DNA of 64,000 bases from an uncultured Bacilli bacterium (lineage in GTDB: Bacteria; Bacillota_I; Bacilli_A; RF39; UBA660): assembly GCA_934085595.1 (NCBI GenBank), contig CAKOHK010000001.1, positions 145,705 to 209,704 of the forward strand. The letters are read 5' to 3'. The translations under genes and the position numbers were made by a program. Shown one piece after another: positions 1 through 64,000 of the stretch. Below the pieces are notes generated by a model. That model saw only the letters and a list, made by a program, of their open reading frames with translations. It had not been told where the DNA came from and made no database searches. Numbering within the stretch: position 1 is the stretch's first letter; each line of letters begins with the position of its first letter.

Positions 1-127
1 TACTTCTATAACTTTCACTATTTATAGTAAACTTAGCATAGCTTATTGCAAGTACCGGACAAAGTCCAATAAGTACTAAAACTATAAAAATGTTTTTCTT
101 TATAAAATAAGATATTTTCTTCTTCAT
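1..127 (-). CDS. 5' end (about 42 codons) of another TasA/camelysin-like secreted-protein paralog. The gene runs off the window start
   Basis: ATG at 125-127 on the minus strand. Translation MKKKISYFIKKNIFIVLVLIGLCPVLAISYAKFTINSESYRS matches the N-termini of 20301..21818 and 62479..64000. DNA of 1..100 is near-identical to 63904..64000. Confidence 0.6.
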   Translation of the reverse strand, partial: MKKKISYFIKKNIFIVLVLIGLCPVLAISYAKFTINSESYRS

Positions 128-169
128 ATTATCTAGTTTACCCATAAACATACACTTCCATTATATAAA

Positions 170-200
170 ATTATAACAGGTACCCCCTCCCCCATGTCAA
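170..200 (-). promoter_or_regulatory. Candidate sigma-A promoter for the paralog starting at 127, with an interrupted homopolymeric tract (G5AG5 on the coding strand) in the spacer
   Basis: Minus strand reads TTGACA (195-200), then a 19-nt spacer tGGGGGaGGGGGtacctgt, then TATAAT (170-175). A second TATAAT lies just downstream. Confidence 0.45.
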
Positions 201-266
201 GTAGCAAACAAAAAGCGAACACTTTTGTGAACGCATTTTAATATCATATTCCTTTAAAAATCATTT

Positions 267-2437: not shown

Positions 2438-2713
2438 CTATTCTTCTATTACTTTTATATTACTATTATTATAACTAAGTCCATAATTATTTGCAACACT
2501 TAAAGCATTATCAAGACTAGATAATTCATTTATTTTCATCTGCATTCCAAGATTTAATTCTTCTTGAGTATTTATTTCTTTTAATAGTCTTTGTTTAGTA
2601 GCATTCCCCGATTCAATAGCGGCACTAAATATGCTTTCACATAGTATTGTTCCTACCATGAATAATACTATTAAAGCTGTAAACATCTTTTCATACTTTG
2701 ATTTTGTTTTCAT
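2438..2713 (-). CDS. ftsL: Cell division protein FtsL-like (small bitopic membrane protein)
   Basis: 91 aa with a single TM and a coiled-coil-like tail. Lies between rsmH and the PBP gene, as in dcw clusters. Confidence 0.5.
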   Translation of the reverse strand: MKTKSKYEKMFTALIVLFMVGTILCESIFSAAIESGNATKQRLLKEINTQEELNLGMQMKINELSSLDNALSVANNYGLSYNNSNIKVIEE

Positions 2714-3630
2714 TATCTTACCCTTTCTATTACTCTTAGTTTTGCACTTCTGCTTCTATTATTTTCATCTATTTCTTTTTCGTTTGGTATTATTTTTATT
2801 ATTTGTTTTGCTCTTGCTTTCATATTTTCTGGTACCATAGGTAACTTACTTGCCATTTTATCATCACTACATAATTCTTTAAATATATTAGCTACTGTTT
2901 TATCTTCTAATGAATGAAATGTAATAACTGCAAGTCTTCCATCTACTTTAAGTAAATCAAACGCATCATTAATAGCTTTATTTAATATATCTATTTCATG
3001 ATTTACTTCTATTCTTATTGCTTGAAATACTTTTCTTGCTGGATGATGTTTAACTCTATAGCTCTCTGGAACACTATTTTTAATAACTTCTACTAGTTCT
3101 AAAGTAGTATCAATAGGTCTACTATTTACTATCTTTTTAGCTATTTGTTTACTATATTTTTCATCCCCATATTTATAAAATATATTAGATAATTCTTTTT
3201 CACTATAATTATTAACTACATAGTGTGCATCAAGTGTATTATCTCTATCCATTCTCATATCAAGATAAGCGTTTTTATGAAAGCTAAATCCTCTTTCATC
3301 TGTATCAAGCTGTGGACTACTAACTCCAAGATCAAACATGATACCATCTACATCTTTATCTATATATTTTTTAATATCTACAAAATTACTTTTAATTATT
3401 TTATAATTTTTAGATATTTTACTTAATTTCTGATCAGAATAATTAATCGCATCTATATCCTGATCAAAGGCGAATAAGAACCCCTTCTCATTCAATCTTT
3501 TAAGTACTTCACTAGAATGTCCTGCATACCCTAAGGTACAATCTATGTAAATGCCATCCGGCTTTACATTCAAATTATTTATTGTTTCCATAAGCATAAC
3601 TGATTTATGCTTCATAATTATCCCCCTCAA
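2713..3630 (-). CDS. rsmH: 16S rRNA (cytosine1402-N4)-methyltransferase RsmH/MraW
   Basis: 305 aa. Motifs DCTLGYAGHS and FHSLEDK are typical of MraW. Confidence 0.95.
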   Translation of the reverse strand: MRGIIMKHKSVMLMETINNLNVKPDGIYIDCTLGYAGHSSEVLKRLNEKGFLFAFDQDIDAINYSDQKLSKISKNYKIIKSNFVDIKKYIDKDVDGIMFDLGVSSPQLDTDERGFSFHKNAYLDMRMDRDNTLDAHYVVNNYSEKELSNIFYKYGDEKYSKQIAKKIVNSRPIDTTLELVEVIKNSVPESYRVKHHPARKVFQAIRIEVNHEIDILNKAINDAFDLLKVDGRLAVITFHSLEDKTVANIFKELCSDDKMASKLPMVPENMKARAKQIIKIIPNEKEIDENNRSRSAKLRVIERVR

Positions 3631-4078
3631 ATAAATCTTCTGCTATTTCTTCAAGTGTATTTTCATTTTCTTTAATAAACTTGTCAAACTCTTCTTTATC
3701 CCATATTTCAAGTCGTTCATTAACGCCAATAATAACACATTCTTTATTAATATTGGCGTAATGAATGAGCGGTGAGGTAATACTAATTCGACCTTGTTTA
3801 TCGAATTCATTTAAAGAAGCTCCACCAACGAAAAACCTTTCAAAAGCTCTTACATTTTTCTTAGTGAATTTTAAAGTGTTTAAGTCTTTAACAAGTTTAT
3901 TCCATTCATCTATTGAATATACAAATAAACATTTATCAAGACCTTTAGTTATTATGTATTGATTTCCAAGTTCATTTCTAAACTTAGAAGGAATTATAAG
4001 TCTACCTTTATCATCAATATTATGATGATATTCACCCATTAACATAAAAACTCCCCACTTTCCTCCACTTTGTTTCAC
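3605..4078 (-). CDS. mraZ: Transcriptional regulator MraZ
   Basis: 157 aa with the duplicated DxxxR MraZ fold (KGRLIIPSKFR ... KQGRISI). First gene of the dcw cluster. Confidence 0.9.
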   Translation of the reverse strand: MKQSGGKWGVFMLMGEYHHNIDDKGRLIIPSKFRNELGNQYIITKGLDKCLFVYSIDEWNKLVKDLNTLKFTKKNVRAFERFFVGGASLNEFDKQGRISITSPLIHYANINKECVIIGVNERLEIWDKEEFDKFIKENENTLEEIAEDLFEGDNYEA

Positions 4079-4160
4079 TTCCTACCACTATATTACTATA
4101 ACAATATATAAAAGTAAATACTAAATCATAAAAAAACACTCACTTTTTGTAAAGTAAGTG

Positions 4161-4838
4161 TTAATTACGTACTCTTTTAAGAATATCTCCTAAGTCAACT
4201 TCTATATCTTTATCACTACTAAGCATACTATTTATATATTCACTTAATTTTATTAATTCTTCTCTATCAAGAGTATCCTTATTTTTTTCTTCAGTTCTAG
4301 TCATAAAAGGTGTCACATTAGTATAAGTTTCACTATTAACTTGTTCATTTAAAGAAGCACTTACCGGTTTAATAACATCTTCTTCTTGATGATACTCATC
4401 AGCCCCCTCAAGAACATCAATACGTCTTGCTTTATATGGCTCCACTTCCTCAAACGCAACCCTACTAAGAGGTCTAAATAAACTATTATCAGGTTGCTTA
4501 ATAACACTAACATCATCAACATATATATCATTATTAGAATTAGTATTTTTAAAGTGTCCACTTAATACTTTACTATCTATAAAATCATTAAGACTCTTCT
4601 TATCATTAAGAAGTTTATTACATTTAATAACTGTATAAAATGGTATAAGTCCTTTCATATAATCACTTATATCAAGTAAACTTCCTTTATTTTTCTTAAG
4701 TCCCCTATTCTTAAGTTCAAAATTAATTCTAAAATTAACTTCATCACTCTTATATAAATAGTAAACTATACTAACTATTAATGTAATTAAATATATAATC
4801 ATTATATTGCTTAATACTTCACTCATAACTGCCTCCAC
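4161..4838 (-). CDS. Hypothetical membrane-anchored protein
   Basis: 225 aa with an N-terminal TM helix. No recognisable motif. Confidence 0.4.
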   Translation of the reverse strand: MEAVMSEVLSNIMIIYLITLIVSIVYYLYKSDEVNFRINFELKNRGLKKNKGSLLDISDYMKGLIPFYTVIKCNKLLNDKKSLNDFIDSKVLSGHFKNTNSNNDIYVDDVSVIKQPDNSLFRPLSRVAFEEVEPYKARRIDVLEGADEYHQEEDVIKPVSASLNEQVNSETYTNVTPFMTRTEEKNKDTLDREELIKLSEYINSMLSSDKDIEVDLGDILKRVRN

Positions 4839-4891
4839 ATCAAAAATATATTATATATTATAGTATTCTTTAGTATAGACTTCAAGTATTA

Positions 4892-5902
4892 TTACATAGC
4901 AAGTGCTAATTTCTCAAGACTATCATTATATTTGCTTTTAAGTCCTAGTTCTAATATCTCTCCAAAATGGTCACATAAATTATCAAACTCACTAGTTGCA
5001 TAGCGATCTTGATTTGGACATATTTGATAATTAAATCCATAATCTACAAGAAATGGTCTAATTAATCTATCTTGCCATCTTTCTCCTTGATATAAAATTA
5101 CTCTTTGCCCACATACATTAACTTGCATCCATCCAAGTACTTCAGTAGCAAAACTTTCTCTTATATCAGCAGTAACGTCACATACTCTTTGATATTCTTC
5201 ATATTTAGCACTCATTCTATTAAACGAATCTATATCATACTCTTTAAGTCCATCCATAAATGTTCTAAATAAACTTCCATGATCTTGTCTTCCATAACCA
5301 CCAGCAGCTTTATCATCATATTGACTAACAAGCTCACCATTAGGAAGTATCCAACCTCTAAAACTACTATTTCCACTTTTAGATGTAATATCTTCCATAA
5401 ACGAATCTATTATTTGCTTTTTATATTGTTCTCTTCTTTCTCTTTCAAGTCTTTCCCTTTCAAGTCTTTCTCTTTCGAGTCTTTCCCTTACAAGTCTTTC
5501 TCTTTCAAGTCTTTCTTGATCAATATCATCGCTTGTATTTGTTTGACTTTCTTCATTCTTAGTTTCTTCAGTAGTCTTACTAGTTTTACATAAATAAAGT
5601 GCTATTCTTTCAAGCTTTCTTATAACAGAATCTGTATTTTCACCTTTTGCAAGTTCATTTCTACAATAAGTTGTTAATTGAAGTAAACTCACTCCAGTAT
5701 CACGGCTTAAAGTAAGCAATAAATCATTTAGTACTACAGCACTATTAATATTACTATAACCGTTATTTAAATTACCATATCTTACATATCCTCTATCATC
5801 ATTACTATAGATTATTTTATCATTATTATTATACTTTATATCGTTATACTTATTATTTTCAATTTTTATATTATAATATTTTTTATCATCATAATATGAC
5901 AT
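4892..5902 (-). CDS. Hypothetical protein with a central (RERLE)n repeat
   Basis: 336 aa. The central ERLERERLVRERLERERLERERLERERRE is encoded by a 15-nt tandem DNA repeat. The C-terminal half is Cys/Trp-containing and unrecognised. Confidence 0.4.
   Translation of the reverse strand: MSYYDDKKYYNIKIENNKYNDIKYNNNDKIIYSNDDRGYVRYGNLNNGYSNINSAVVLNDLLLTLSRDTGVSLLQLTTYCRNELAKGENTDSVIRKLERIALYLCKTSKTTEETKNEESQTNTSDDIDQERLERERLVRERLERERLERERLERERREQYKKQIIDSFMEDITSKSGNSSFRGWILPNGELVSQYDDKAAGGYGRQDHGSLFRTFMDGLKEYDIDSFNRMSAKYEEYQRVCDVTADIRESFATEVLGWMQVNVCGQRVILYQGERWQDRLIRPFLVDYGFNYQICPNQDRYATSEFDNLCDHFGEILELGLKSKYNDSLEKLALAM
5436..5520 (-). repeat. In-frame 15-nt tandem repeat (about 5 copies) encoding the RERLE repeats
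   Basis: Plus strand reads ctttcaagtctttcc / ctttcaagtctttct / ctttcgagtctttcc ... inside CDS 4892..5902. Confidence 0.7.
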
Positions 5903-5995
5903 AGATTTACCCCCTTAATAAAAGTATTTACATTATAGCATATTTCTTCCATTTTGTCAAATTATTGTTCGTACGCAAAACCTTAAATAATATAA

Positions 5996-10231: not shown

Positions 10232-11266
10232 CTATTTATCAAGAACTAATCTCGTTAGTGAATCTGAATAATTAATTCCATTACTAAACTTACTAGCTTT
10301 ATTAAAAGTATCTACACTCATAGATGCAATCATATTATACTTAAGTTCTTTTAATATCTCATCATAATATTTAGTAGTAGAAACAAGTTGATCATTATAT
10401 TTTGCATTCTCTTCAAAAACTCTTGCATCTACACTATTATCATATTTTATTAATCTTTCTATACTATCATCTCCATATAAAAATCTAACAAACACATTTT
10501 CTAATCCAGTAGACCATAAAGAACCATTTTCATCTTTATATCTTGTATTTCTTTGAATATCATTAAGTATATCTACTATACGATCAAAATCATATGAAAC
10601 CCTATATTTCCTAATCATATCGCCTTCTACTTTTAAATAAGTATCATTACTACAATTACGAAATACAAGATACCTAATATAATCTTTTTTACTTATTTCA
10701 TCTATTACTTCATAACTTATTGCTTCCATAACTGATTCATATAAACTTTTAAGATTAGGAAGATTAGAAGCTACATTTCTTTGTCTATATAACTCTCTTA
10801 TTTTATATAATTCTTTAGCATTAGCATTATTATCTTCTCTTTCTTTTATTTCTTTATCTATTAAAGAAACTAAATCTTCTTCACCATTATATTTTAAAAG
10901 TCCACTAATCGCAAGAGCTCCCATATATTCATTACTAAAGCATATATCATCTAAAAAAAATTCTTCTTCATCTTCTTCATCAAAATCATAAGCAACTCCA
11001 AGTAACATCGCAGTAAGTTTATAAAGTAAAGAATGATAAACTAATTTATATTCTATTTTTCCATCTTTACCTTCTTCTATAGTACTATCATCAAACTTTA
11101 CATACTTAAAATCAAGATCTTTTTTATCAAGAACGCCTTTATCTAACTTACTAGAATATTCAAAGTTACCCTTTCTAATCTCTAAAAATAAATCTTTAAG
11201 TTTATCATAATCAATATCTACTTTATATTTATAAAGCATTCCATCTTTTTCTTCAATATATTTCAT
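10232..11266 (-). CDS. Tandem-array paralog 1 (344 aa), unknown function
   Basis: Starts MKYIEEKDGMLYKYKVDIDYDKLKDL and ends LTRLVLDK, with GGAGG 7 nt upstream. Shares an N-domain, a DLVSLIDKEIKERE hinge and a C-domain (ELYxQRxVAS..., INIFR-like, FPxxxYNM, YYxEILxEL) with 11292..16902. Confidence 0.6.
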   Translation of the reverse strand: MKYIEEKDGMLYKYKVDIDYDKLKDLFLEIRKGNFEYSSKLDKGVLDKKDLDFKYVKFDDSTIEEGKDGKIEYKLVYHSLLYKLTAMLLGVAYDFDEEDEEEFFLDDICFSNEYMGALAISGLLKYNGEEDLVSLIDKEIKEREDNNANAKELYKIRELYRQRNVASNLPNLKSLYESVMEAISYEVIDEISKKDYIRYLVFRNCSNDTYLKVEGDMIRKYRVSYDFDRIVDILNDIQRNTRYKDENGSLWSTGLENVFVRFLYGDDSIERLIKYDNSVDARVFEENAKYNDQLVSTTKYYDEILKELKYNMIASMSVDTFNKASKFSNGINYSDSLTRLVLDK

Positions 11267-11291
11267 TTCAAAACCTCCATTAAATACTATA

Positions 11292-12143
11292 TTATTTTTT
11301 AAGAACTAATTTTGATATTTCTTCTTCACTTACATCATTATCAAATTCCATTATTCTTGTAACTACTTCCTTAGGTCCAGTTTCAATTAATTCAAATCTA
11401 AGTTCATTTAATATCTCATCATAATAATCTTGAGGTAAACCTACATTCATATTATATTTACTATTTGGAAACTCTATTCTAGCATCCATTAATAATTTAA
11501 TAGTTTCATCTATGTTACCATTGCTTATAGTAAGTTTATCAGCAACACCAAGTTGCTTAAAACGTTCTAAGCATCCACGTCTAAATATATTAATTTTTTC
11601 TTTTTTACTATCATATTGTATTAATGCTGAAATATATTCCTTTCCATTTAATACACCCCTTAATATCTGTTCTAAATTAGTCTTTGTCACAAAATATTCA
11701 GAATCCATAAATCCAGTATTTTCATCCAAATTAGCAAGTATTTCTTCCATCTTTTGTCTATCAAATGTTACTTCAAATTTATAATAAGAATCACCATCTA
11801 TTTTTAAATATTGAGTTTCAGATAAAGCTAATACTTTTTTACCCTTCAAATACTCTTCTTTACTTATTTCATCTACTTTTTCAAAATCAAAGTATTTCAT
11901 AAACTCATCAAATCTACCTACAAATCCAATAGGTCCAAATCGTTTAGCTATTGCTTCTTTTCTATCATATAATTTCTTTATTTCACATAATTCTTTAAAT
12001 GCATTATCAAAATCTAGTGCTTTTCTAAAAGCACATTTTCTTCTTTCAATATCTTCATCTATTGATAATAGTAGTTTATCTTCTTCCCTAGCTTTTACAA
12101 GATATTTATAAAGCATTCCATCTTTTTCTTCAATATATATCAT
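11292..12143 (-). CDS. Tandem-array paralog 2, internally deleted (N-domain mostly missing)
   Basis: Likely start MIYIEEKDGMLYKY at 12143 with GGAGG upstream. The ORF track begins 8 codons earlier at 12167. After about 25 aa it jumps straight into the C-domain (KELCEIKKLYDRKEAIAKRF...) and ends ISKLVLKK. Confidence 0.5.
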   Translation of the reverse strand: MIYIEEKDGMLYKYLVKAREEDKLLLSIDEDIERRKCAFRKALDFDNAFKELCEIKKLYDRKEAIAKRFGPIGFVGRFDEFMKYFDFEKVDEISKEEYLKGKKVLALSETQYLKIDGDSYYKFEVTFDRQKMEEILANLDENTGFMDSEYFVTKTNLEQILRGVLNGKEYISALIQYDSKKEKINIFRRGCLERFKQLGVADKLTISNGNIDETIKLLMDARIEFPNSKYNMNVGLPQDYYDEILNELRFELIETGPKEVVTRIMEFDNDVSEEEISKLVLKK

Positions 12144-12156
12144 TTTAAAACCTCCT

Positions 12157-13346
12157 CTAATTAACACATATTATAATATGTTCTATTTTTTTTGTCAATG
12201 ATAATTTCATCACTTCTTCACTTATACCTTCATCAAACTCTACTGCTTTTTTAACTTCTTCCACGCTTTCACTATCAATTAATTTAAATCTTAGTTCACT
12301 TAATATCTCATCATAGTATGCTTGAGGTTCTACTGTTAACTTCGTATTAAATTTACTATAAGGAAATTCGGCTTTAACACTCATTAATCGATCAATAATT
12401 TTGTCTATATCATCACCCATATTATCAGCAATTTCTTTTAAACGTTTTGCATACTTACGTCTAAATATATTAATTTCTTCTTTTTCACTATCATACTTAA
12501 GTAATGATGAAATATCTCCTCTTCCCTTTAATATACTTCTTAATATACATTCTAAATTAGTACTTATTATTATACCTTCATAATTCATAAAGCCACTATT
12601 TTTAACTAGTTTATTAAGTATTTCTTCCATATTATCTTTATTATATGTTACTTCATATTTACAATAACTACCGCATTCTATTTTCAAGCATTGATCTTTA
12701 GATAAAGCAAATATTTCTCTATCTTTAAGATACTCTTCTTTATTTATTTCTCCTACTTTTTTGAAACTAATACAGCCCATAACTTCAGCATACTTATCTA
12801 AAAATCCTGCAGGACTTAAAAGTTTTGACGCTACTTCTCTTTGATAATATAACTCTTCTATCTTAGAAGCTTCTTTAAGTTTACGCTCAGAATCACGTCC
12901 ATACACTCCATCATCTATTATTTTTTTCTTCCTTCTATTTCTTCATCTATTAAAGAAACTAAACTCTCTTCTCCTTCATAATTCAAAAGATTAGAAAGAC
13001 CTAGTATTTGTACATAGTTACTATCAAACCTTTTACCACTAGCATATAGTTCTTTATCAAGCGCTTCAATATTATCATCAAAATCAGCTAACCTACTTAC
13101 ATATTTATAAAGTTTTGAATAGTAAGTTAAATGATAACATAGTCTTTCACCAATTTTACTTTCAGTAATACTATCAGCATAACAAAAATCTAAATCATCC
13201 GCCTTAAGTATTCCATCCTTTAATAACCTATGGTAAATAAAATTACCCTTTCTTATTTCAGAAAATACCTCTTCAAGTCTATCATAATCAATATCTACTT
13301 TATATTTATAAAGCATTCCATCTTTTTCTTCAATATATATCATCAA
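12157..13346 (-). pseudogene. Tandem-array paralog 3, split by a frameshift at an A7 homopolymer. The two ORFs are 12918..13346 (N-domain) and 12157..12906 (C-domain)
   Basis: The N-half ends ...LVSLIDEEIEGRKK*. The C-half continues in the +1 frame as IIDDGVYGRDSERKLKEASKIEELYYQRE. The junction is minus-strand ggaagAAAAAAAtaatag (plus T7 at 12921-12927). One extra A would give a single ORF of about 398 aa. Confidence 0.6.
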
Positions 13347-13365
13347 AAGCTCCCTTAAATCTGTA

Positions 13366-14562
13366 TTACTTTTTAAGAACTAATCTTGATACTATTTCTT
13401 TATTTATTTCACTTTCAAACTTTTCACATCTAGCATATTCTTCAAGATCCATAGTAGAAATTAAAGTAAACTTTAGTTTACTCATTATTTTTTTATAATA
13501 ATCTTGAGGTAACTTTACTTTCATATTATATTCAGCATTTGGAAAATCTTTTTTAGCCGCTTCTAATAACTCAGTTATACGCATCAAATCTTCTTCATTT
13601 TTTCCTTTTTTATTTAACAGCTCTTCAATCTCTTTATAACGCTCATTACATTCTTTTCTGAAAATATTAATTTCTTCTTCAGCACTATTATAATTGATAA
13701 GTTCAGAAATATTAGCTTTACGATCAAATACATCACGTAATATATCTTCTAATTTAGTGGAACGTACATAGACATAAGGTTTATATCCAGTATTTCTATA
13801 TAAAGCATCAGACAATTCTCTCATATTATTTCTATTAAATGTTACTTTATATTTTTGAACATTGTTTCCTTGCACTCTTACATATGTATCATAGCTTTGA
13901 TTAGTAAAGCCTAAATATTTTTCATAGTCTTCTTTACTTATCTCATCTACTTTTTCAAAACTTATAGTTTCCATAACAGATTCATATAGTTTTGAAACAT
14001 CTAAAAGACTAGCTGCTTCTTCTCTTTGATTATATAACTCTTTTATTTTATAAGCTTCCCTAAGTTTCTTATCAAAATCAAATTTATTTTTTTTACTTTC
14101 TAACACTTTAATTCTTTCTTTAATTTCTTCATTTATTAAAGAAACTAGATCTTCTTCTCCATCATATTTTAAAAGTTCAATAAGACTTAATAGTTTTAAA
14201 TATTCACTATCAATCTTTCTATCAAGAGGGTACATTTGATCAGCAAAGTATAAATCATCTCTATGACATTTAACCTCATCTTCATAGCCAAGTAATCTAC
14301 CAATAATTATATAAAGTCTTGAACAGTGAACTAATTCATAACAAGTACCCAACATATCACCATTATTAGAAAGCAAATTCTTTTGATCAAACTTTGTATA
14401 TTCAAAATCTATATCATCCCAGTCATGTATATCTTTACCTAATGAACCAGTATAATAAAAATTACCTTCTTCTATCTTTAACATTAATTCTTTAAGTCTT
14501 TCTTCATCAATATCCACTTTATATTTATAAAGCATTCCATCTTTTTCTTCAATATATTTCAT
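13366..14562 (-). CDS. Tandem-array paralog 4 (398 aa)
   Basis: MKYIEEKDGMLYKYKVDIDEERLKEL ... VSRLVLKK. Full two-domain architecture. Confidence 0.6.
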   Translation of the reverse strand: MKYIEEKDGMLYKYKVDIDEERLKELMLKIEEGNFYYTGSLGKDIHDWDDIDFEYTKFDQKNLLSNNGDMLGTCYELVHCSRLYIIIGRLLGYEDEVKCHRDDLYFADQMYPLDRKIDSEYLKLLSLIELLKYDGEEDLVSLINEEIKERIKVLESKKNKFDFDKKLREAYKIKELYNQREEAASLLDVSKLYESVMETISFEKVDEISKEDYEKYLGFTNQSYDTYVRVQGNNVQKYKVTFNRNNMRELSDALYRNTGYKPYVYVRSTKLEDILRDVFDRKANISELINYNSAEEEINIFRKECNERYKEIEELLNKKGKNEEDLMRITELLEAAKKDFPNAEYNMKVKLPQDYYKKIMSKLKFTLISTMDLEEYARCEKFESEINKEIVSRLVLKK

Positions 14563-14587
14563 TTTAAAACCTCCCTTAAATATAAAA

Positions 14588-15709
14588 TTATTTACAAAGT
14601 ACTAACTTAGATGCTACTTCTTCACTTATTCCACTTTCAAACTCTTCTACTTTCTTATATGTTTCAATATCCATAGAAGAAACATTTTCATAATTAAGTT
14701 CACATAATATCTTTTCATAATATCCATATGTTGGAACTATACTCATATTATATTCTGCATAAGGAAAACTATTTCTAACTTCTTCTGTCACATTAATAAG
14801 ATCATCAACACTATTAGAATCTAAAGTGCCTATCTTTTTGGACTGTTCCATGCACTCTCTTCTATATATATTTATTTTTTCTTTATCAGGTTCGTAACTC
14901 AATAATGAAGTTATATTAGTTTTACCATTAATAAACTCAATTAATAGTTTCTCAAGTTCTGTACTTTCAAACTTACCAGAAGCATCCTTATAACGAGTAT
15001 CCATCTGCATAAGACGAAGTAAATAAACAAGACGATTCATATCAAAACATACTTTATTTTTATTAATATATTTTCCATCTTTTACCAAGAATGAATTATT
15101 ATCACATTTACATAGTTCCCTATATTTAGTATAATCTTTCAAACTTATTTCATCTATTTTTTCATAAGTTATTGTATTCATAATATCACTATAAAACCTA
15201 GTAATATCAGGAAGACTAGCTGCTTTTTCTCTTTGATTATATAGTTCTTTTAATATATATAGTCTAGTAAGTCTACCATTAAAATCATATTTAGATAAAC
15301 CACTATAAAGATTCTCTTTTCTCTTTTCTATTTCTTTATCTATTAAAGAAACCAAATCCACTTCCCCACTATAACTTTCAAGTTCATAAAGAGCATACAT
15401 CCTATCATACTCATCACAGTTACTTTTAGAAATTACATCATACTCTAATAATCTATTAGCAAGCTTATATAAATTAGAATAAAGAACTAATTCATAAGAT
15501 AACCCTTTTTCTCTACTAATACTATCTTCATCAAAATCTATATATGAAGTAAAATCTAAATCTTTATATGTAAGTGTTCCTTCTTCTACATCATGACTAT
15601 AATAAAAATTACCATCTTCTATCTTTAATATTAATTCTTTAAGTCTTTCTTCATCTATATCCACTTTATATTTATAAATCATTCCATCTTTTTCTTCAAT
15701 ATATATCAT
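14588..15709 (-). CDS. Tandem-array paralog 5 (373 aa)
   Basis: MIYIEEKDGMIYKYKVDIDEERLKEL ... ASKLVLCK. Confidence 0.6.
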   Translation of the reverse strand: MIYIEEKDGMIYKYKVDIDEERLKELILKIEDGNFYYSHDVEEGTLTYKDLDFTSYIDFDEDSISREKGLSYELVLYSNLYKLANRLLEYDVISKSNCDEYDRMYALYELESYSGEVDLVSLIDKEIEKRKENLYSGLSKYDFNGRLTRLYILKELYNQREKAASLPDITRFYSDIMNTITYEKIDEISLKDYTKYRELCKCDNNSFLVKDGKYINKNKVCFDMNRLVYLLRLMQMDTRYKDASGKFESTELEKLLIEFINGKTNITSLLSYEPDKEKINIYRRECMEQSKKIGTLDSNSVDDLINVTEEVRNSFPYAEYNMSIVPTYGYYEKILCELNYENVSSMDIETYKKVEEFESGISEEVASKLVLCK

Positions 15710-15735
15710 TTCAAAACCTCCTTTAAATACTTATA

Positions 15736-16902
15736 CTATTTACCAAGCACTAATTTAGATGCTGCTTCTTTATTTACTTCACTATCAAACTCTTGAGCTT
15801 TGTTATATATTTCACTATCTAGTGAAGGAATAAAAGTATATCTAAGTTCCTTAATTATTTCTTCATAATATGAATCAGTTGAATCTATGCTCATATTATA
15901 TTCAGCATATGGAAACTCATTTCTAAGTTTTTCCATTAGCTCAATCTCACCATCAATATTTTCTTCACTAAGTAAACCAATCTTTCTATAGCGTTCAGCA
16001 CATTTCTTTTTAAAAATATTTGCTTGTTCTTCTTCACTATTATAATTAATTAATGAAGAAATATCTCCTCCTTCATCAAGTATATTAACTAATATACGTT
16101 CTAAATTAGTTGGTACTAATCTTCCATCAAGAGCTTTAAATCTTGTATTATCTTCAATACTTTCTAATATATTTCTCATTCTCTCTTCATCAAATGAAAC
16201 TAAATATTTTCTAGCGTTTTCATTTTCAGTTTTACTAATAATTCTTGAGTTATAGTTAGATAAAACTAAATAAGCCATATAATCTTCTTTTAGAATCTCA
16301 TCTATTCTTTCAAAACTTATAGTGCTCATAACAGCATAAACAAATCTTCTAGCGTCCACAACGTCAGATGCCACTTTTCTTTGTTTATATAGCTCCTTTA
16401 TCTTATAAAGTTCTCCGCACTTTCCAGCATAATCAAACTTAGATGGTTCATTTCCGAGTAAACTTTCTCTTTCCTTAATTTCCTCATCTATTAAAGAAAC
16501 CAAATCCTTTTCACCATTATAATTTAAGAGTTCAAAAAGCCCAGAAGTCATTATATAATCTCTAATATCATCTTCATCACTAAATGGCTCCACGTAATAT
16601 TCTTCAATATCTTCAATATCTTCTTCCATACCAAGTAGTTTATTAACAATCTTATATAAATTTGAATAATAAACAAGTTCATATCTAGAACTAAATAAAC
16701 CGTCACTAAAAATCCAATTTATACTATCAAATCTTGTATAATCAAAATCTAATTCATCAAACTCTAACTTATCTTCATCTAGCGAATTAGAATATTTAAA
16801 GTTACACCCTTTCATCTCATTAAATATTTTTCTAAGTCTTTCTTCATCTATATCTACTTTATACTTATAAATCATTCCATCTTTTTCTTCTAAATATATC
16901 AT
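15736..16902 (-). CDS. Tandem-array paralog 6 (388 aa)
   Basis: MIYLEEKDGMIYKYKVDIDEERLRKI ... ASKLVLGK. GGAGG lies 12 nt after the stop of the upstream metallophosphoesterase gene. Confidence 0.6.
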   Translation of the reverse strand: MIYLEEKDGMIYKYKVDIDEERLRKIFNEMKGCNFKYSNSLDEDKLEFDELDFDYTRFDSINWIFSDGLFSSRYELVYYSNLYKIVNKLLGMEEDIEDIEEYYVEPFSDEDDIRDYIMTSGLFELLNYNGEKDLVSLIDEEIKERESLLGNEPSKFDYAGKCGELYKIKELYKQRKVASDVVDARRFVYAVMSTISFERIDEILKEDYMAYLVLSNYNSRIISKTENENARKYLVSFDEERMRNILESIEDNTRFKALDGRLVPTNLERILVNILDEGGDISSLINYNSEEEQANIFKKKCAERYRKIGLLSEENIDGEIELMEKLRNEFPYAEYNMSIDSTDSYYEEIIKELRYTFIPSLDSEIYNKAQEFDSEVNKEAASKLVLGK

Positions 16903-16914
16903 TTCAAAACCTCC

Positions 16915-18021
16915 CTATTTGATACCGTATCTTTTACTAAACTTATCTATCATAGATAAACTTCTACTATCTCCTACTTCTTCAATAATCTCTTCTTCTA
17001 TAACTTCTTGTGTTATTTCTTCACACACACTACTTTCTTCTTCTTTAAACTGTACATATCTTTTAAACTTATTTTCCGGACTACACACTATATGTGTCAT
17101 AATACTACTCTCTCCAAGAGATATAACCTTATGATCATTATTTAACCATAGTTCCTTTACATTTACAAGTGATATAGTATTATTTCCAGTATTAATAGTT
17201 ATATCTAAAAAACAAGGACACATTTCATTATTAATCATAATATCACTTAAAGTAGGAACTTTAATATATAAACTATTAGCGTGCTCTCTTATCTTAAATC
17301 TGTGTTCATGTCCACTAAGTACTATTCCACAAGCACTTTCTATATCAAGTTTAGTATTATTTTTATATGTTTTACCTAAGTCATGTCTCATAAATATATT
17401 AATCTTAGATAAAACAACTTTAGAAAGACCATACCCAGTAAACACCATATCATGCCTTCTAGAATTAATCATTTCCCCAATATCTATATTAAACTTCTCA
17501 TAAAAACTCATATCATGATTTCCACCAATCATAAAATTAATAATATTTTTATCAAACGGATATTTCTTAATCGTACTATCAATCATATCTATAGGATCAC
17601 TATAATTAACTTTATATATTGACGAAGGCATAAATCCTTCAAATATATCACCACTATTAAATATAATATTTATTCCATTCTTCTTAGCATAATCATATAC
17701 TATTTCCATATATCTATTATCTGAATATTTACTCTCTCTATGTTCATCACTAACAGCTATTATTCTATATATTCTATTAGTACTTTGCATAGGATTTCCA
17801 ACTATAAATATATCTTTATCTTCATTATTAAAAACACTTTTAATTCCATAAGTAATATTACCATTATCATGATAAAATCTATCTAAATTAATACCATAAC
17901 ATTTAAGTCTATTAAGTTTAATATATAACTGTTTATTACTAATTCCAAGTGTGCTAGCCATCTCATTAGCACTCTTCCCGTTTTTAATCATCTCTATTAT
18001 TTTAGCATTGTCTTCATCCAT
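16915..18021 (-). CDS. Helix-turn-helix N-terminal domain fused to a calcineurin-like metallophosphoesterase
   Basis: 368 aa. N-terminal GKSANEMASTLGISNKQLYIKLNRLK looks like an HTH. MPE motifs appear in canonical order: SDEH, GDIFEG, GGNHD, RHD, SGHEHR. Confidence 0.65.
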   Translation of the reverse strand: MDEDNAKIIEMIKNGKSANEMASTLGISNKQLYIKLNRLKCYGINLDRFYHDNGNITYGIKSVFNNEDKDIFIVGNPMQSTNRIYRIIAVSDEHRESKYSDNRYMEIVYDYAKKNGINIIFNSGDIFEGFMPSSIYKVNYSDPIDMIDSTIKKYPFDKNIINFMIGGNHDMSFYEKFNIDIGEMINSRRHDMVFTGYGLSKVVLSKINIFMRHDLGKTYKNNTKLDIESACGIVLSGHEHRFKIREHANSLYIKVPTLSDIMINNEMCPCFLDITINTGNNTISLVNVKELWLNNDHKVISLGESSIMTHIVCSPENKFKRYVQFKEEESSVCEEITQEVIEEEIIEEVGDSRSLSMIDKFSKRYGIK

Positions 18022-21818: not shown

Positions 21819-21842
21819 CTTGATATACCTTCTTATATTAGA

Positions 21843-45198: not shown

Positions 45199-46680
45199 TT
45201 ATTTAATTATAAATGGATTAGTGCTTTTTCCGTTTCCAGAAACAAATTTTACATCAGCATTAAGATACACAGTAGGTCTTATATTGACATCACTAGCAGA
45301 ATCTACACCATTAATATATAAAGTACCTTCACTCTGTGCAATAAGTACAGCGTGTTGGTCTATAGATTCAGGTGACAACAACCAATAAACGGTATTATTC
45401 ATCAGCCAATTAGTACTAACGCACTCATCATCTTTATAATTTCCAGAGTCTGCCCCATCATAACATACATTACTAGCATACATATAATCACTAGGATATA
45501 AAAGTCCTACTTTGCCATCCCATGTTTGACTATTTCCATCCCATACATCAGTACTTCTTTCGCGTGTATATATGCTTTCTGCTGTTCCATAACCACCAGA
45601 AGAATAAACCTGATTACCAAGGTACCATTTCGTAGTACTTATTTGACTTCTAGCTTCATCAGTTAATCCAGTAGTTGTATAATCGCACAAAGGATTAGTA
45701 TCATCATATGGATGAAAATATATTGAACACCCAAGAGGAGAATATCCATATTGTCTATTAAAATATGCTCCTTCATTTAACAAAGTCATAAGTGATGCTT
45801 TTGTCCAATCATTAACAGAGCCAGAAGCAGAACTAAAATCCCAAGCTGCTTGTCCAATAGAATCTCTAACTATTTTAACTTTGTTTTCCTTTTTATAAGT
45901 TCCATCACTCTGAGGTGTTTCTACTTCAAATAATCCAACTATTCTCCACAGTCCCTCTTCTTTATTAAATGTAATATAATTGCTAGGATCTTTCCCTTGA
46001 AATCTGTATTCAGTAGTACTATATTCCTGATTTCCTGTAGCTTCATGCGTTATAGATATTAAATCAAGTTTTTTATAATTATCTATTAAAGTTTGAGCAA
46101 GTGTAGCTGTTTGAATACTTTCTGCGACACCAAGAACACCATAAAACTTCTTTCCTTGATTATAGTTTTGCGCTTTATCAGTATAATTAACAAAACGAAT
46201 TGAAACAGTGTAAGTATGAGTTTCTCCAGGTAATATTTTTTGTGATTCTTTATATGGATACAACACTTCACCCTTATTAGCTATAGCCTCAGTAGTAACT
46301 TGTGGCACAATAACTGTAGAACCATTAACACAGCTTCCATTATCAACACCACTACTACCACAAACGCATCTAATCATAAGTTCATCTTTTTGAATCCCAT
46401 TATAAAGCTTCTGCCATCCAAGACTATAATAAGTTTCTTCATTTCCTTTGTTTTCAACAGTTATAGTTTTCGTAGTTGTCCATCCAGGCTCTATATTTTC
46501 TGCAATTATTTGATTACCATCAGTATATTTAAGTTCAAGCTTAGTAGTACCAACATCTATAGTTTCAGCCACATCATTACCACTAACAGTCTGACTAAAA
46601 TACGCATAAGTAAGCCCAACCGTTAATAAAAATGCAACTGTAAGTACACTTCCATAAATAAACTTTTTATCTTTCATCAT
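45199..46680 (-). CDS. Secreted TasA/camelysin-like protein with the shared C-terminal domain (family member P3)
   Basis: 493 aa. Signal peptide ...VGLTYAYFSQT (AYFSD-type SipW-cognate motif), then TTKLELKY...NIEPGW...ITVENKG as in TasA. C-terminal domain carries ITHEATGNQEYSTTEYRFQG, WRIVGLFEVETP, SQISTTKWYLGN and YPSDYMYASNVCY. Confidence 0.65.
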   Translation of the reverse strand: MMKDKKFIYGSVLTVAFLLTVGLTYAYFSQTVSGNDVAETIDVGTTKLELKYTDGNQIIAENIEPGWTTTKTITVENKGNEETYYSLGWQKLYNGIQKDELMIRCVCGSSGVDNGSCVNGSTVIVPQVTTEAIANKGEVLYPYKESQKILPGETHTYTVSIRFVNYTDKAQNYNQGKKFYGVLGVAESIQTATLAQTLIDNYKKLDLISITHEATGNQEYSTTEYRFQGKDPSNYITFNKEEGLWRIVGLFEVETPQSDGTYKKENKVKIVRDSIGQAAWDFSSASGSVNDWTKASLMTLLNEGAYFNRQYGYSPLGCSIYFHPYDDTNPLCDYTTTGLTDEARSQISTTKWYLGNQVYSSGGYGTAESIYTRERSTDVWDGNSQTWDGKVGLLYPSDYMYASNVCYDGADSGNYKDDECVSTNWLMNNTVYWLLSPESIDQHAVLIAQSEGTLYINGVDSASDVNIRPTVYLNADVKFVSGNGKSTNPFIIK

Positions 46681-47615: not shown

Positions 47616-49361
47616 TTATTCTAATATAGCTTTAATTCTTCTAACCCCAGCACTACTAGCTTCCTCTTTAACTATTTTAAAATGCCCAAGTTCACTTGTA
47701 TTCTTAACATGAGGACCACCACATAATTCTTTTGAAACATCACCAATAGAATATACAGTTACCATATCAGGATACTTCTCAATAAACATACACTCAGCCC
47801 CACTATTAATCGCATCTTTCTTACTCATCTCTTCTACTTTTACATCAAGACCTTCTTTAATCCATTCATTAACTAAATCCTCAGTCTTTTGCTTCTCTTC
47901 ATCACTAAGTTTATGATCACAAGAAAAATCAAATCTCATTCTCTCTTCAGTAATATTACTTCCCTTTTGATGTACATCTTTATTTACTACAACTTTTAAA
48001 GCAGCATTTAATAAATGAGTCGCAGTATGATATTTAGTTTCCTTTTCACCATTACCACCAAGACCACCTTTAAACTGTCCACTACTAGCAGTTCTACTAA
48101 GTTCCTGATGAGCCTTATACTTTTCCTTAAAACCATCTTCATCAACTTTAATACCTTTTTCTAAAGCAAGTTCTATAGTAAGTTCAATAGGAAATCCATA
48201 AGTATCATATAATCTAAATGCACTACTAGCATCTATATCTTTTCCATCTTTAACTGTTTTTTCAAACTCTCTAAGTCCTTTTTCTAATGTTTTATTAAAC
48301 TTCTCTTTTTCATTCTTTAAAACTTCTAAAACAACATTTTTATTTTCTTTAAGTTCACTATAATATTTTTCATATTTACTAATTATTAAAGATGCTACTT
48401 TGCTTTCCCAATCACTATTTATATCTATATTTAATTTCTTAGCATGTCTTATGCTTCTTCTTATAAGTCTTCTAAGTATATACCCTTGTCCTACATTACT
48501 AGGTTTAATTCCTGCTGGATCTGCACTTATAAATACACTAGTTCTAATATGATCTGCTATTATACGCATACTTTTTTCATTACCTTCATATGGCAAAGAA
48601 GTAATTTCACATATTAAATCAATAACATCTTTCCATATACTAGATGCATAATTATCATTTACCCCTTCAAGTACACTTGTAACCCTTTCAAGACCCATAC
48701 CCGTGTCTACATTCTTATGTGCAAGTGGAACTATGCTACCATCTTCCTTATGTTCATACTGCATAAACACATCATTCCATATCTCAACCCATCTATTATC
48801 TTCAGGATCAAATACTTCTGGTACTTCTTCATCACTTCTGAAATAAAACATTTCTGTATCAGGCCCACATAACCCTACCATCTCAAGATTAGGCCACCAG
48901 TTATCCTCTTTAGTCCTAGCTATTCTCTCTTCCTTAATACCTAAACTTTTCCAAAGTTCAATAGCCTCAGTATCCTCATCAGCTATTTCATTCCCAGCAA
49001 ATACAGTAACCGCAAGTTTTTCCACTGGTATATTAAGTACTTTAGTTAAAAACTCAAAACTCCACTCAATAGCTTCCTTCTTAAAATAATCACCAAGACT
49101 CCAGTTACCAAGCATTTCAAAGAAAGTATGATGATATGAATCCCCTACTTCATCTAAATCATTAGTTCTAATACACTTTTGATAATCACAAAGTCTTTTC
49201 CCATAAGGATGCTCTTTCCCACTTAAATATGGTACTAATGGCTGCATACCAGCTGTATTAAAAAGAACAGTATTATCATTCTCTGGTACAACCGGAGCAC
49301 TAGGTATTTGCTTATGTCCCTTACTAACAAAAAAATCAATAAATAAATCTCTTACATTCAT
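47616..49361 (-). CDS. alaS: Alanine--tRNA ligase, unusually short form (581 aa) with aminoacylation and editing motifs but no C-Ala domain
   Basis: N-terminal FNTAGMQP, HHTFFEMLGNWSLGDYFK and WPNLEMVGLCGPDTEMFYF. Editing-domain HTATHLL (HxxxH) and CGGPH. Preceded by a T-box with a GCU specifier. Confidence 0.75.
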   Translation of the reverse strand: MNVRDLFIDFFVSKGHKQIPSAPVVPENDNTVLFNTAGMQPLVPYLSGKEHPYGKRLCDYQKCIRTNDLDEVGDSYHHTFFEMLGNWSLGDYFKKEAIEWSFEFLTKVLNIPVEKLAVTVFAGNEIADEDTEAIELWKSLGIKEERIARTKEDNWWPNLEMVGLCGPDTEMFYFRSDEEVPEVFDPEDNRWVEIWNDVFMQYEHKEDGSIVPLAHKNVDTGMGLERVTSVLEGVNDNYASSIWKDVIDLICEITSLPYEGNEKSMRIIADHIRTSVFISADPAGIKPSNVGQGYILRRLIRRSIRHAKKLNIDINSDWESKVASLIISKYEKYYSELKENKNVVLEVLKNEKEKFNKTLEKGLREFEKTVKDGKDIDASSAFRLYDTYGFPIELTIELALEKGIKVDEDGFKEKYKAHQELSRTASSGQFKGGLGGNGEKETKYHTATHLLNAALKVVVNKDVHQKGSNITEERMRFDFSCDHKLSDEEKQKTEDLVNEWIKEGLDVKVEEMSKKDAINSGAECMFIEKYPDMVTVYSIGDVSKELCGGPHVKNTSELGHFKIVKEEASSAGVRRIKAILE

Positions 49362-61718: not shown

Positions 61719-61776
61719 TTTAAACACCACCACAATTTTATCAAAAAAATAGAAATAATTAAATATCATTTCTAAT

Positions 61777-62424
61777 TTATTTTTTTAATTTAGGACATAC
61801 CCCATACATTCTTTTATCTTTATCTAGTGCTTCTTCTCTACTTATAAGTCCAAAATATGCCGGCTTACACTTATCTTTTTCACTTTCATCTTTTGCTGGA
61901 TACTTTCTATTACAACTTTCACACGTTAAATAATACTTATATTTAGGATTAGAATCAGTTAAAATAGTTCTAAAGTATTCACAATCACAGCATCTTACTT
62001 CATTAACTTTATATTTATTGCCTTTTCTAAGTATATCAGAACTACTAACTTCATCAAAATCAGGAACTTTAATAGAAGGTAAATCAAGTATCAAATCAGC
62101 AAGTCTATCAGAACCATTTTCAATTAAAGTTGAAGCACTTTTAACCATATTTGAAAGTTTGCCATATATTGATTCCAAAGTACCTTTTTCATCAGTAAGT
62201 TTTTTTAATCTAGATATAACTCTTCCCTTTTCATCAAGTGTAACATTAGGCATAAACTTAATATTTTTACATACAAAACCAATAATATACATCTTTTCTT
62301 CCATATTATTTCCAAATACTGTAAAAGTATCTAAAAAATCATATAAATTCATATCACCAGAATATGTAATACCTTTTTTAAGTATCATTGCATCTAAATA
62401 TACTCTTCTTTTATTATCTATCAT
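61777..62424 (-). CDS. Cys-rich hypothetical protein
   Basis: 215 aa. C-terminal CCDCEYF...CESCNRKY...CKP...CPK cysteine cluster. Confidence 0.4.
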   Translation of the reverse strand: MIDNKRRVYLDAMILKKGITYSGDMNLYDFLDTFTVFGNNMEEKMYIIGFVCKNIKFMPNVTLDEKGRVISRLKKLTDEKGTLESIYGKLSNMVKSASTLIENGSDRLADLILDLPSIKVPDFDEVSSSDILRKGNKYKVNEVRCCDCEYFRTILTDSNPKYKYYLTCESCNRKYPAKDESEKDKCKPAYFGLISREEALDKDKRMYGVCPKLKK

Positions 62425-62478
62425 AATAACCCCCTAAAGCATCTAGATTATATCACATATATGTTTGCATGTCAATTA

Positions 62479-64000
62479 TTACTTAATTATAAACGGACTA
62501 TTACTGCTTCCATTACCTGAAACATAAGATGTATTTGCATCAAGGTATACTGACGGACGTACATCAACATTTGAAAGAGTAACTTCATCAGAGCCTAAAT
62601 TACCACTACTACCAACATACATAACACGAATCATACCAGAAGTTGGTGATATATTCCAAAACCAATTACTAGATGAATACATCCAGTCAGTATTTATGCA
62701 AGTTTCATTTCTATAATCATAGCTTGAACCACTATAACTAAATCCATACATTGTATCATTATTATAGCATCCACTACTTGCATACATATAATCACTTGGA
62801 TACACAAGTCCTACTTTTCCATCCCACGTTTGATTATTTCCACTCCACACACTTGTACTTCTTTCTTGAGCATACAACGCTTTTGTATTTCCATAGCCAA
62901 CACTATTTGTCCAAATCGCATTACCTAAATACCACTTTGTACTACTTATTTGATTTTTAGCTTCATTTGTTAAACCATTACTTGCGTATGTAGCAGTTTT
63001 ATTATAATAATCTCCACTATTTAGTACTCCCATTAATGATGTAATTGCCCAGTTATTATAATTGGATCCTGTTTTTGATGTATTCCACGCTTGTGTACCT
63101 ATGGAATCTCTTATTAACTTCACTTTATACTCTTTTGCGTATCCACTACTACTAGGTGTTTCTACTTCAAACACACCAACAATTCTCCACACTCCAGTTT
63201 CACCATTAAATGTTATATAGTTATTTGGGCTTTTTCCTTGATATCTATATTCAGTTGTTGCATAATTTTGATTTCCTGTTGCTGATTGTGATATTTTAGT
63301 TAGTCCTAAAGTACCATAACTTAGCATCAAATAATCACTAAACTTATTATATTCTTCAAAATACAAACTACATTTAGTTTGTTTAAAAGTATTTATAGTC
63401 AAATCATTAGTTTTCGCATCATATTTCACAGTTGCATTATTTGTACAAGTATAATTAACAAGATTATATTTTTTATTACTATCAAGTTCATCCACTCTAG
63501 TATTATCTACATAAAAAGCAGTTGTCTCATAGTCATAATGTAAATAGTTTGTATCTATTTCTGTGTATGTATCAAGTACTTTCACTTCCTCTACATCATT
63601 AAATAAATATCCTCCAAAGACCATAAGTGATAATGTTTGTTTTCTGTTACTTTTATTTTTAATCGTAAGTGATATTGTTCTTTTAGTAAGTATTCCACCT
63701 AGTGATGGTTCTAAATAATCACCCGCATATCTGATTTCTAAGTTGGTGTTATTTAAATATGCTAATTTATAATTTGATGATATTGCATTTAAACTAGTTA
63801 TCTCTACTGTATGTTCCATTTCACCAGGTTCCATCTCTATTGAATACACATTATTTCCATCTATTTTTATAGAATATAAAAGCTCTGAAATATACATTTC
63901 ATTACTTCTATAACTTTCACTATTTATAGTAAACTTAGCATAACTTAGTGCTAGTACTGGACATAAACTTATCAACACTAAAACTATAAAAATGTTTTTC
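62479..64000 (-). CDS. Secreted TasA/camelysin-like protein with the shared C-terminal domain (family member P4). Its 5' end runs off the window
   Basis: ...KNIFIVLVLISLCPVLALSYAKFTINSESYRS... N-terminus is about 70% identical to P1. C-terminal domain carries LTKISQSATGNQNYATTEYRYQG, WRIVGVFEVETP, NQISSTKWYLGN and YPSDYMYASSGCY. The true start lies beyond 64000. Confidence 0.6.
   Translation of the reverse strand, partial: KNIFIVLVLISLCPVLALSYAKFTINSESYRSNEMYISELLYSIKIDGNNVYSIEMEPGEMEHTVEITSLNAISSNYKLAYLNNTNLEIRYAGDYLEPSLGGILTKRTISLTIKNKSNRKQTLSLMVFGGYLFNDVEEVKVLDTYTEIDTNYLHYDYETTAFYVDNTRVDELDSNKKYNLVNYTCTNNATVKYDAKTNDLTINTFKQTKCSLYFEEYNKFSDYLMLSYGTLGLTKISQSATGNQNYATTEYRYQGKSPNNYITFNGETGVWRIVGVFEVETPSSSGYAKEYKVKLIRDSIGTQAWNTSKTGSNYNNWAITSLMGVLNSGDYYNKTATYASNGLTNEAKNQISSTKWYLGNAIWTNSVGYGNTKALYAQERSTSVWSGNNQTWDGKVGLVYPSDYMYASSGCYNNDTMYGFSYSGSSYDYRNETCINTDWMYSSSNWFWNISPTSGMIRVMYVGSSGNLGSDEVTLSNVDVRPSVYLDANTSYVSGNGSSNSPFIIK

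Follow-up and report, generated by a model that had tools for sequence, protein, structure and literature searches.

The DNA analysed here is a stretch of 64,000 nucleotides (nt) from contig CAKOHK010000001.1 of an uncultured Bacilli bacterium (positions 145,705 to 209,704 of the forward strand), referred to below as the window. Three closely similar segments in it are the 5' ends of members of a dispersed gene family, in which slippage of a G-tract in the promoter, combined with recombination of a shared 5' module, probably varies the binding proteins that the cell displays. In the window, the same N-terminus opens a truncated gene at the window start (the start copy), the complete gene P1, and the gene P4, which is cut off by the window end.

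The shared 5' segment and its promoter module

The three copies of the segment, their conserved core and the genes that carry them are as follows.

1-98, minus strand: cassette copy 1 (start copy), repeat family D17
21686-21783, minus strand: cassette copy 2 (P1), repeat family D17
63903-64000, minus strand: cassette copy 3 (P4), repeat family D17
63884-63936, minus strand: invariant 53-nt core AAGTTTACTATAAATAGTGAAAGTTATAGAAGTAATGAAATGTATATTTCAGA (alignment A3, columns 217-270), inside which the crossover of contig L007 lies
1-127, minus strand: 5' end of the start copy, with ATG at 127 and an alternative in-frame ATG at 151; the first 42 codons are MKKKISYFIKKNIFIVLVLIGLCPVLAISYAKFTINSESYRS, and the rest of the gene lies beyond the window start
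20301-21818, minus strand: P1, complete, 505 amino acids (aa), with signal peptide, conserved N-module and DUF6273-like C-domain (residues ~236-505)
62479-64000, minus strand: P4, truncated by the window end, with 506 codons present; 99% identical to P0048 (524 aa)

An earlier note on this DNA had pointed to three near-identical 5' segments. They were confirmed, far above chance, with an identity of 88-90% and the whole block never reaching 100%. Over the 98-nt in-register block, the start copy is 89.8% identical to P1 and 87.8% identical to P4, and P1 and P4 share 87.8%. A 34-mer core occurs without mismatch at 1-34 and 63903-63936 and with one mismatch at 21686-21719, where shuffled sequences are expected to give no occurrence. 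The ranges first given for the segments were slightly out of mutual register; the 36-mer quoted with them is exact at 63900-63935 and has one mismatch at 21683-21718, and in the start copy the window edge truncates it. All three cassettes in the window lie on the minus strand. Adjoining DNA had also been described as shared, which holds for the promoter core of the start copy and P1 (TTGAC, G-rich stretch, TACC, TATAAT) but not for the leader and the first 8-10 codons, which differ; the P4 promoter falls outside the window.

The downstream regions were said to have diverged much more. This is true on average, although the divergence forms a mosaic along the gene instead of a single step after 130 nt. 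P1 and P4 show an identity of 0.80-0.93 over the first ~185 nt and of 0.45-0.75 across much of the remainder, interrupted by islands of high identity (0.82-0.87 at nt 306-485, with peaks of 0.88-0.92 at nt 778-837 and 1148-1237). When 14 distinct family genes were aligned by codon, DNA identity averaged over all pairs was, from 5' to 3', 0.91, 0.77, 0.74, and 0.64. The conserved block is a whole expression module that occurs family-wide and is not peculiar to the three copies. Both window ends fall inside the 98-nt cassette, the copies being 63,902 nt apart, and contig L007 from another sample joins exactly those ends. A circular or wrap-around artefact was ruled out, as the window ends are only 88% identical and an identical contig of another assembly passes the window start.

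At every cassette-type copy, the module consists of TTGAC, a G-rich stretch, TACC(C), TRTGnTATAAT, a leader of ~25 nt with AGAAGG, and ATG. This is a sigma-A-type promoter with the G-rich tract between its -35 and -10 elements at all loci examined. The window holds the following parts of it.

21843-21874, minus strand: P1 promoter, with TTGAC at 21870-21874, G11 at 21859-21869, TACCC, TATGA, and TATAAT at 21843-21848
21828-21833, minus strand: P1 ribosome-binding site AGAAGG
160-200, minus strand: start-copy promoter, with the -35 TTGACA at 195-200, G5-A-G5 at 183-193, and TGT-TATAAT, the -10 lying at 170-175
215-234, minus strand: imperfect hairpin with a T-run, between the PBP gene and the start-copy promoter, read from the sequence

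The spacer is 20 nt in P1 (TTGAC-G11-TACCCTATGA-TATAAT) and 19 nt in the start copy (TTGACA-TG5AG5TACCTGT-TATAAT), which has a second TATAAT at 160-165. A consensus scan for spacers of 16-18 nt calls neither promoter. The G11 tract of P1 is the sole run of seven or more G in 64 kb of DNA with a G+C (GC) content of 26%, where 0.23 such runs are expected. The poly-G promoters of the earlier note thus come down to two tracts, of which G11 (21859-21869) is uninterrupted and G5AG5 (183-193) interrupted, whereas P2 and P3, two window genes described below, have ordinary promoters. The hairpin at 215-234 is not called by a strict terminator scan; it looks like a terminator and may be part of the repeated module, because a similar sequence precedes a P4-type promoter in contig L016. 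In the type-A promoters (window 21843-21874; contigs L009 and L100), the candidate -10 elements TATGAT and TATAAT overlap and lie 5 nt apart. A spacing of 17 nt would be reached with G8 to TATAAT and with G13 to TATGAT, and tracts of 9, 10, 11, and 13 could form two "on" windows.

Tract polymorphism and probable exchange between copies

Promoters were compared in 30 instances across assemblies, with tract lengths taken from the consensus of metagenome assemblies, in which homopolymer miscalls are possible. Uninterrupted tracts were G9, G10, G11, or G13. Spacers ranged from 15 to 22 nt, and the variation in length lay wholly within the G-rich stretch. At the PBP locus, the states G5AG5, G6AG3, and G7AG3 were found, the latter two in other strains and giving spacers of 17 and 18 nt, and at the tgt locus G9 was found versus G13. 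The tract of the allele encoding P0004 is G11 in two assemblies and G10 in another (L105 G11 versus L108 G10), with no mismatch over 88 + 471 flanking nt. Four contigs (L003, L010, L101, and L107) end inside the tract, which is compatible with reversible length change but not specific to it. The pseudogene copy in L013 has a decayed tract (GAGAGGAGGGG). By its layout, the promoter has the architecture of spacer-type phase variation, and we infer G-tract switching of the family genes.

Exchange between copies was indicated by several lines of evidence. The pairwise homoplasy index (PHI) of 14 genes was 0.619, compared to 0.688 +/- 0.004 in permutations, none of 500 being as low. In L102 (hup locus), nt 496-675 are 95-98% identical to L011 (PBP locus) and 76-88% identical to the orthologue of L102 itself in L005. 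Similarly, nt 226-360 of P1 are 97-99% identical to L010, compared to 75% overall. Such mosaic patches connect different loci; they occur in intact genes of long contigs and not near the contig ends. Between orthologous loci, identity is 97-99% in the housekeeping flanks, as within one species, and 72-88% in the resident gene bodies.

A search for recombinant junctions in related strains, which the earlier note had recommended, produced two candidates, both on contigs from short-read metagenome assemblies. In L007, nt 1-2627 correspond to window 2628-1 (PBP gene, promoter, and 5' end of the start copy) at 97.5%, and nt 2530-5931 correspond to window 64000-60599 (the body of P4 and the two genes downstream of it) at 97.9%. 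Other PBP-locus genes (L006 and L011) have the same sequence as L007 upstream of the switch, which occurs within the 53-nt core; downstream of it, L007 is P4-type. The canonical PBP locus continues otherwise. The junction is the product that would be expected from a circle or a tandem duplication of the 63,902-nt interval in a window-like genome, and it may alternatively reflect another synteny or a chimeric assembly. In L002, the candidate junction lies at the G-tract. This contig encodes a protein identical to P1, followed by the downstream genes of P1 at 99.6%, and its upstream side carries a family member, queA, and tgt. Its match to the window stops precisely at TTGAC and the G-tract (G9), where the tgt-locus promoter is joined to P1.

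These results support the conclusion that the family recombines. The cassettes had been proposed as substrates for gene conversion or promoter swapping, for which the PHI test, the mosaic patches, L007, and L002 speak; exchange runs, however, along the whole gene and not at the 5' end only. A difference at the ileS locus (L018 versus L105) was considered as a third cassette junction, and its promoters differ (83% identity) with a breakpoint that is not demonstrably in the cassette. A site-specific inversion switch in the window was ruled out, the three cassettes being on one strand. A silent-cassette system was also ruled out, as all full copies examined carry a promoter and a start codon of their own. 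The window contains no partial copies, and the decayed copies of relatives (L013 and L014) keep promoters.

The encoded proteins and their genomic setting

A C-terminal domain of ~270 residues is common to four window genes, in which it stands behind three different N-modules. Two of these genes are devoid of the cassette promoter.

41630-43630, minus strand: P2, 666 aa, with an ordinary signal peptide, Listeria-Bacteroides repeats, and the same C-domain; without cassette and without G-tract promoter
45199-46680, minus strand: P3, 493 aa, with a camelysin/BsaA-like N-domain and the same C-domain; promoter TTGACT-17-TATAAT, without G-tract

The last ~100 residues are the most variable part of the C-domain. 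P1 and P4 have no match in Pfam or NCBIfam at standard thresholds, and a sequence-profile search of the PDB found nothing. The match to DUF6273 (PF19789) is below the gathering threshold (16.9 versus 23.5 bits, E = 0.006) and covers the last ~55 residues only. An AlphaFold model of the C-domain from 67 sequences was usable, while that of full-length P1 from 19 sequences was not, with a predicted local distance difference test score (pLDDT) of 41. The predicted fold of the C-domain matches DUF6273 and C-type-lectin-like domains. Elsewhere, DUF6273 occurs as the N-terminal domain of ThomasA, the immunoglobulin A (IgA) protease of Thomasclavelia ramosa, where it is annotated with function unknown (PMC12402451), and in phage "tentaclin" receptor-binding proteins and targets of diversity-generating retroelements; the DUF6273 domains of phage receptor-binding proteins have been modelled as C-type-lectin-like (PMC10743442). 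The converse form of domain shuffling was observed in L012:2501-3400 and in P0065-P0068, where a P1-type N-module precedes a different, glycine-rich C-terminus (PF12810).

The N-terminus of P1 and P4 resembles a signal peptide with a type-I-like cleavage motif, SYA/KF (the slash marks the cleavage site). A lipobox test was negative; in ...LIGLCPLLAFSYA/KF, L stands at -1 of Cys. P1/P4-type proteins are putative secreted or surface ligand-binding proteins. The motif SYA/KFT resembles, weakly, YA/YFS of P3 (TYA/YFS) and the SipW-cognate class of TasA, BsaA, and camelysin, but P1 and P4 match none of these families. P3 matches PF12389 (camelysin) with 28.3 bits (cut-off 22.5) and TIGR04090 with 25 bits, below the cut-off of 60, whereas P1 and P4 match neither. 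Homology of the P1-type N-domain to TasA/camelysin was not supported, the profile comparison aligning only 25 residues at 2.8% probability. No S26 peptidase or sipW was found among the scanned neighbours of P2, P3, and P4, the rest of the genome not having been searched. SipW-type processing of P1 and P4 is a lead, not a finding.

More than 480 homologues of P1 are present among public metagenome and genome proteins, none of them named and none with a Pfam domain, and a scan of one-genome-per-species references with the most conserved peptides of the family did not find it. The copies are dispersed singly, with one tandem case, downstream of housekeeping genes. Their loci are PBP (start copy), nifU (P1), pheT (P4 orthologues), ileS, tgt, and hup, and one copy lies upstream of yunB. 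At least five cassette-type copies (start copy, P1, P4, P0013, and P0026) occur in sample ERZ27287082, which represents one strain. The N-terminus of the start copy is 100% identical to P0021, and in relatives its locus carries the full gene, then a 578-aa camelysin-type member, then nfeD. The P4 orthologue of two related assemblies lies downstream of pheS-pheT with the promoter TTGACAA-G11-TACCC.

In the tandem case (L105:3001-6418), two family members follow ileS, each with its own G-tract promoter. The first gene and the intergenic promoter are identical in L105, L107, and L108, and the 5' cassette of the second gene is ~10% different; L107 and L108 are short contigs that stop at this second cassette, and the difference may be an end-of-contig repeat artefact. 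Two copies are decayed: L013:2501-3700 has frameshifts, deletions, and a degenerate G-tract, and in L014:1399-2400 the signal peptide is interrupted by an in-frame stop, and an internal deletion fuses ...YASDY to ...YMYASS.

The host belongs to the human-gut Firmicutes; it is uncultured, low in GC, and spore-forming. Housekeeping and sporulation genes of the window include PBP, Tex, SerRS, AlaRS, MurB, SpoVA, NifS/IscU, and RecX. Among the matches listed for SerRS, the closest are ~80% identical and come from uncultured gut "Bacilli / Erysipelotrichaceae / Tenericutes" metagenome-assembled genomes (MAGs), and contig L001 of a human-gut assembly matches the window at 100% identity across 7.5 kb.

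Several other features of the window were recorded.

61777-62424: 215-aa ORF directly downstream of P4, without family match; linked to P4-type genes in L007, L016, and L017
44583-45116: 177-aa ORF directly downstream of P3, without family match
35358-37553: 731-aa ORF without family match
10232-18021, minus strand: second paralogous array of eight tandem open reading frames (ORFs) of 344, 291, 249, 142, 398, 373, 388, and 368 aa, whose 5' ends are likewise conserved (MKYIEEKDGMLYKY; repeat families D7 and D15); no Pfam match except a weak metallophosphatase match in the last ORF, and three short ORFs that resemble fragments
5435-5516: 15-nt tandem repeat TCTTTCTCTTTCAAG in 5.5 copies within the ORF 4892-5902 (no Pfam match), encoding a pentapeptide repeat
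47616-49361: alanyl-tRNA synthetase ORF of only 581 aa, which stops just after tRNA_SAD, without the usual C-terminal domain

Proposed mechanism, alternatives, and significance

Slipped-strand mispairing would alter the length of the G-tract and hence the spacing between -35 and -10, for which the observed range is 15-22 nt. Such changes would turn individual copies up or down independently; in the genome of the window, P1 (20 nt) and the start copy (19 nt) would both be out of register. The conserved module and the other conserved patches would provide homology for exchange between copies, which would yield swaps of promoters and gene bodies, conversion patches, and rearrangements that break within family members. 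The likely outcome would be a population varying in the binding proteins displayed. The variable expression repertoire that the earlier note had suggested fits the tract polymorphism and the recombination, although the window has one intact homopolymer and P2 and P3 have none. A more far-reaching joint reading is tentative and somewhat doubtful. In it, a common gut Firmicute related to Erysipelotrichaceae/"Tenericutes" MAG lineages would run programmed surface variation of a kind documented mainly in pathogens, with ~10 dispersed lectin-like genes switched independently by G-tracts. The ~250-nt promoter-plus-5' module would then act as a portable recombination site that reshuffles promoters and gene bodies and even circularises or duplicates the 63.9-kb segment (the L007 junction).

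Several points weigh against the combined action of slippage and recombination, apart from the tract data taken up below. Expression and surface location are predictions from sequence. The N-terminal ~95 residues are near-invariant in more than 60 homologues whose overall identity is no more than 60-74%. This reflects strong selection on the protein, enough by itself to explain much of the DNA identity and of the 5' conservation. L007 and L002 may be chimeras formed across a repeat, the exact core of 53 nt being just under the common k of 55, and inter-strain exchange through the conserved flanks can replace the alleles at a locus without conversion between paralogues. Constraint might be everything, with purifying selection on the shared promoter, the signal peptide, and the N-terminal assembly or secretion segment of an old gene family, recombinants that are chimeras, alleles that come from inter-strain exchange, and a cassette that is no recombination substrate. 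The short-read metagenomic origin of the junction contigs, the reproducibility of some tract lengths among assemblies, and the weak resemblance of the signal/cleavage region to the SipW-type YA/xF motif of P3 fit this explanation as well. It is nevertheless rather unlikely, since the PHI test is strongly significant, the conversion-like patches connect different loci in intact genes away from contig ends, and the two halves of L007 differ from the window to about the same extent, as they would in a single strain. Furthermore, synonymous sites are over-conserved at the 5' end. In the 14-gene alignment, same-codon use in the first 40 codons was 0.86, compared to 0.54 expected from codon usage (ratio 1.59), while the ratios in the rest of the gene were 1.15-1.29, and none of 10,000 column permutations was as extreme. 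This excess implied that something acts on the DNA or RNA itself, for which homogenisation by recombination is a more economical explanation than constraint at the mRNA level. An element acting at the RNA level, for example a leader, a small-RNA target, or a structure for translational control, would conserve synonymous sites, and their concentration at the 5' end is in keeping with it, as is the fold of the P1 leader and cassette, which is somewhat better than that of shuffles (z = -2.1). However, 8 of 200 shuffles fold as well, the leader is only ~25 nt, and the conserved stretch is the same one that encodes the signal peptide and mature N-terminus, which makes such an element very improbable. 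Leader and cassette have no Rfam match, and with this modest z the proposal of a known RNA family or strong RNA structure was set aside as unsupported.

The tract itself might be static or merely mutable, serving as a spacer element or regulator site, with length differences produced by slow indels and by sequencing and assembly noise. The lengths rest on assembly consensus, not on reads; consensus lengths of G10-13 from Illumina assemblies are error-prone, and poly-G is a known Illumina trouble spot that by itself would explain the contig breaks. Independent assemblies agree exactly (G11 three times at nifU, G13 in L018 and L019, and G11 in L016 and L017), which could mean that the tracts are stable. 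In addition, an extended -10 (TRTGnTATAAT) can lessen the dependence on -35 spacing, and the effect may be modest rather than on/off; no uninterrupted type-A tract yields the ideal 17 nt to TATAAT. On the other hand, tracts of G11-13 at the same promoter position in many paralogues would be hard to keep at 26% GC without selection, and the decayed pseudogene in L013 has lost its tract. Short, reliably sequenced tracts vary too (G6AG3, G7AG3, and G5AG5), and the difference at P0004 is a pure 1-nt change between otherwise identical sequences. The same architecture is experimentally phase-variable in Treponema pallidum, Neisseria, and Mycoplasma (PMC7864442, PMC2268961). A static tract is therefore unlikely.

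The vlp genes of Mycoplasma hyorhinis are strongly conserved in the promoter and signal-peptide region and divergent elsewhere. Like the present family, vlp, maa2 of M. arthritidis, and vmm of M. mycoides comprise paralogous surface-protein genes with their own promoters and a homopolymer between -35 and -10, and indels in the spacer, which alter the tract length, switch their transcription on or off, as stated in PMC2268961 with reference to Citti & Wise 1995. The vlp tract, however, is poly(A), and the genes encode lipoproteins and are clustered, whereas here the tract is poly(G), the lipobox is missing, the genes are dispersed singly behind housekeeping genes, the proteins carry a DUF6273/C-type-lectin-like domain, and switching is predicted. 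The poly-G (or poly-C) promoter tracts of T. pallidum tpr, tp0126, and tprL and of N. meningitidis porA and opc also vary in genes for outer-surface proteins, and in T. pallidum such tracts occur in a paralogous family that undergoes gene conversion as well (tprK). Tracts of 7-11 G have been observed in these promoters, and with poly-G between -35 and -10 transcription of tp0126 and porA was optimal at 17 nt (PMC7864442). These are diderm pathogens of other phyla with unrelated proteins, and the effect of the tract was measured there and is predicted here. In Bifidobacterium breve, a gut commensal, replication slippage of a G-tract controls a surface structure, the sortase pilus (PMC9187656); that tract is intragenic and acts by frameshifting, not through promoter spacing, and a multigene family with a common cassette is lacking. 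Compared to M. bovis vsp and M. agalactiae vpma, in which the conserved 5' end is likewise a recombination site, the family differs in that each copy has its own promoter, the copies in the window all point the same way, and there is no associated recombinase, while vsp and vpma use a site-specific recombinase with inversions at a single promoter. Segment exchange between paralogues giving mosaics is shared with pilE/pilS, vlsE, vlhA, and tprK, but not the arrangement of one expression site with promoterless donors. It is plausible that the family works like vlp or tpr promoter-tract switching combined with mosaic paralogue exchange. It would be an analogue and not a member of the vlp or tpr families, because it lacks a lipobox and silent cassettes and the proteins are unrelated.

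Variation through promoter homopolymers and conserved 5' cassettes is textbook knowledge for Mycoplasma, Neisseria, and Treponema. In the human gut, phase variation has been documented mainly as the invertible promoters of Bacteroides, together with one intragenic G-tract in Bifidobacterium. The interest of the present family lies mainly in its host, an uncultured gut commensal, and in its DUF6273/C-type-lectin-like domain. The loci break, and possibly mis-join, short-read assemblies, and MAGs of the lineage are likely to be fragmented or rearranged at these genes. If the proposed mechanism is true, an uncultured commensal Firmicute lineage applies the same logic to C-type-lectin-like (DUF6273) binding proteins, a domain class that retroelements of phages and bacteria diversify as well and that the IgA protease of a related gut species contains. 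The loci would then be concrete places for measuring switching in vivo from metagenomic reads, and the family would point to strong, fluctuating selection by phage, IgA, or host ligands.

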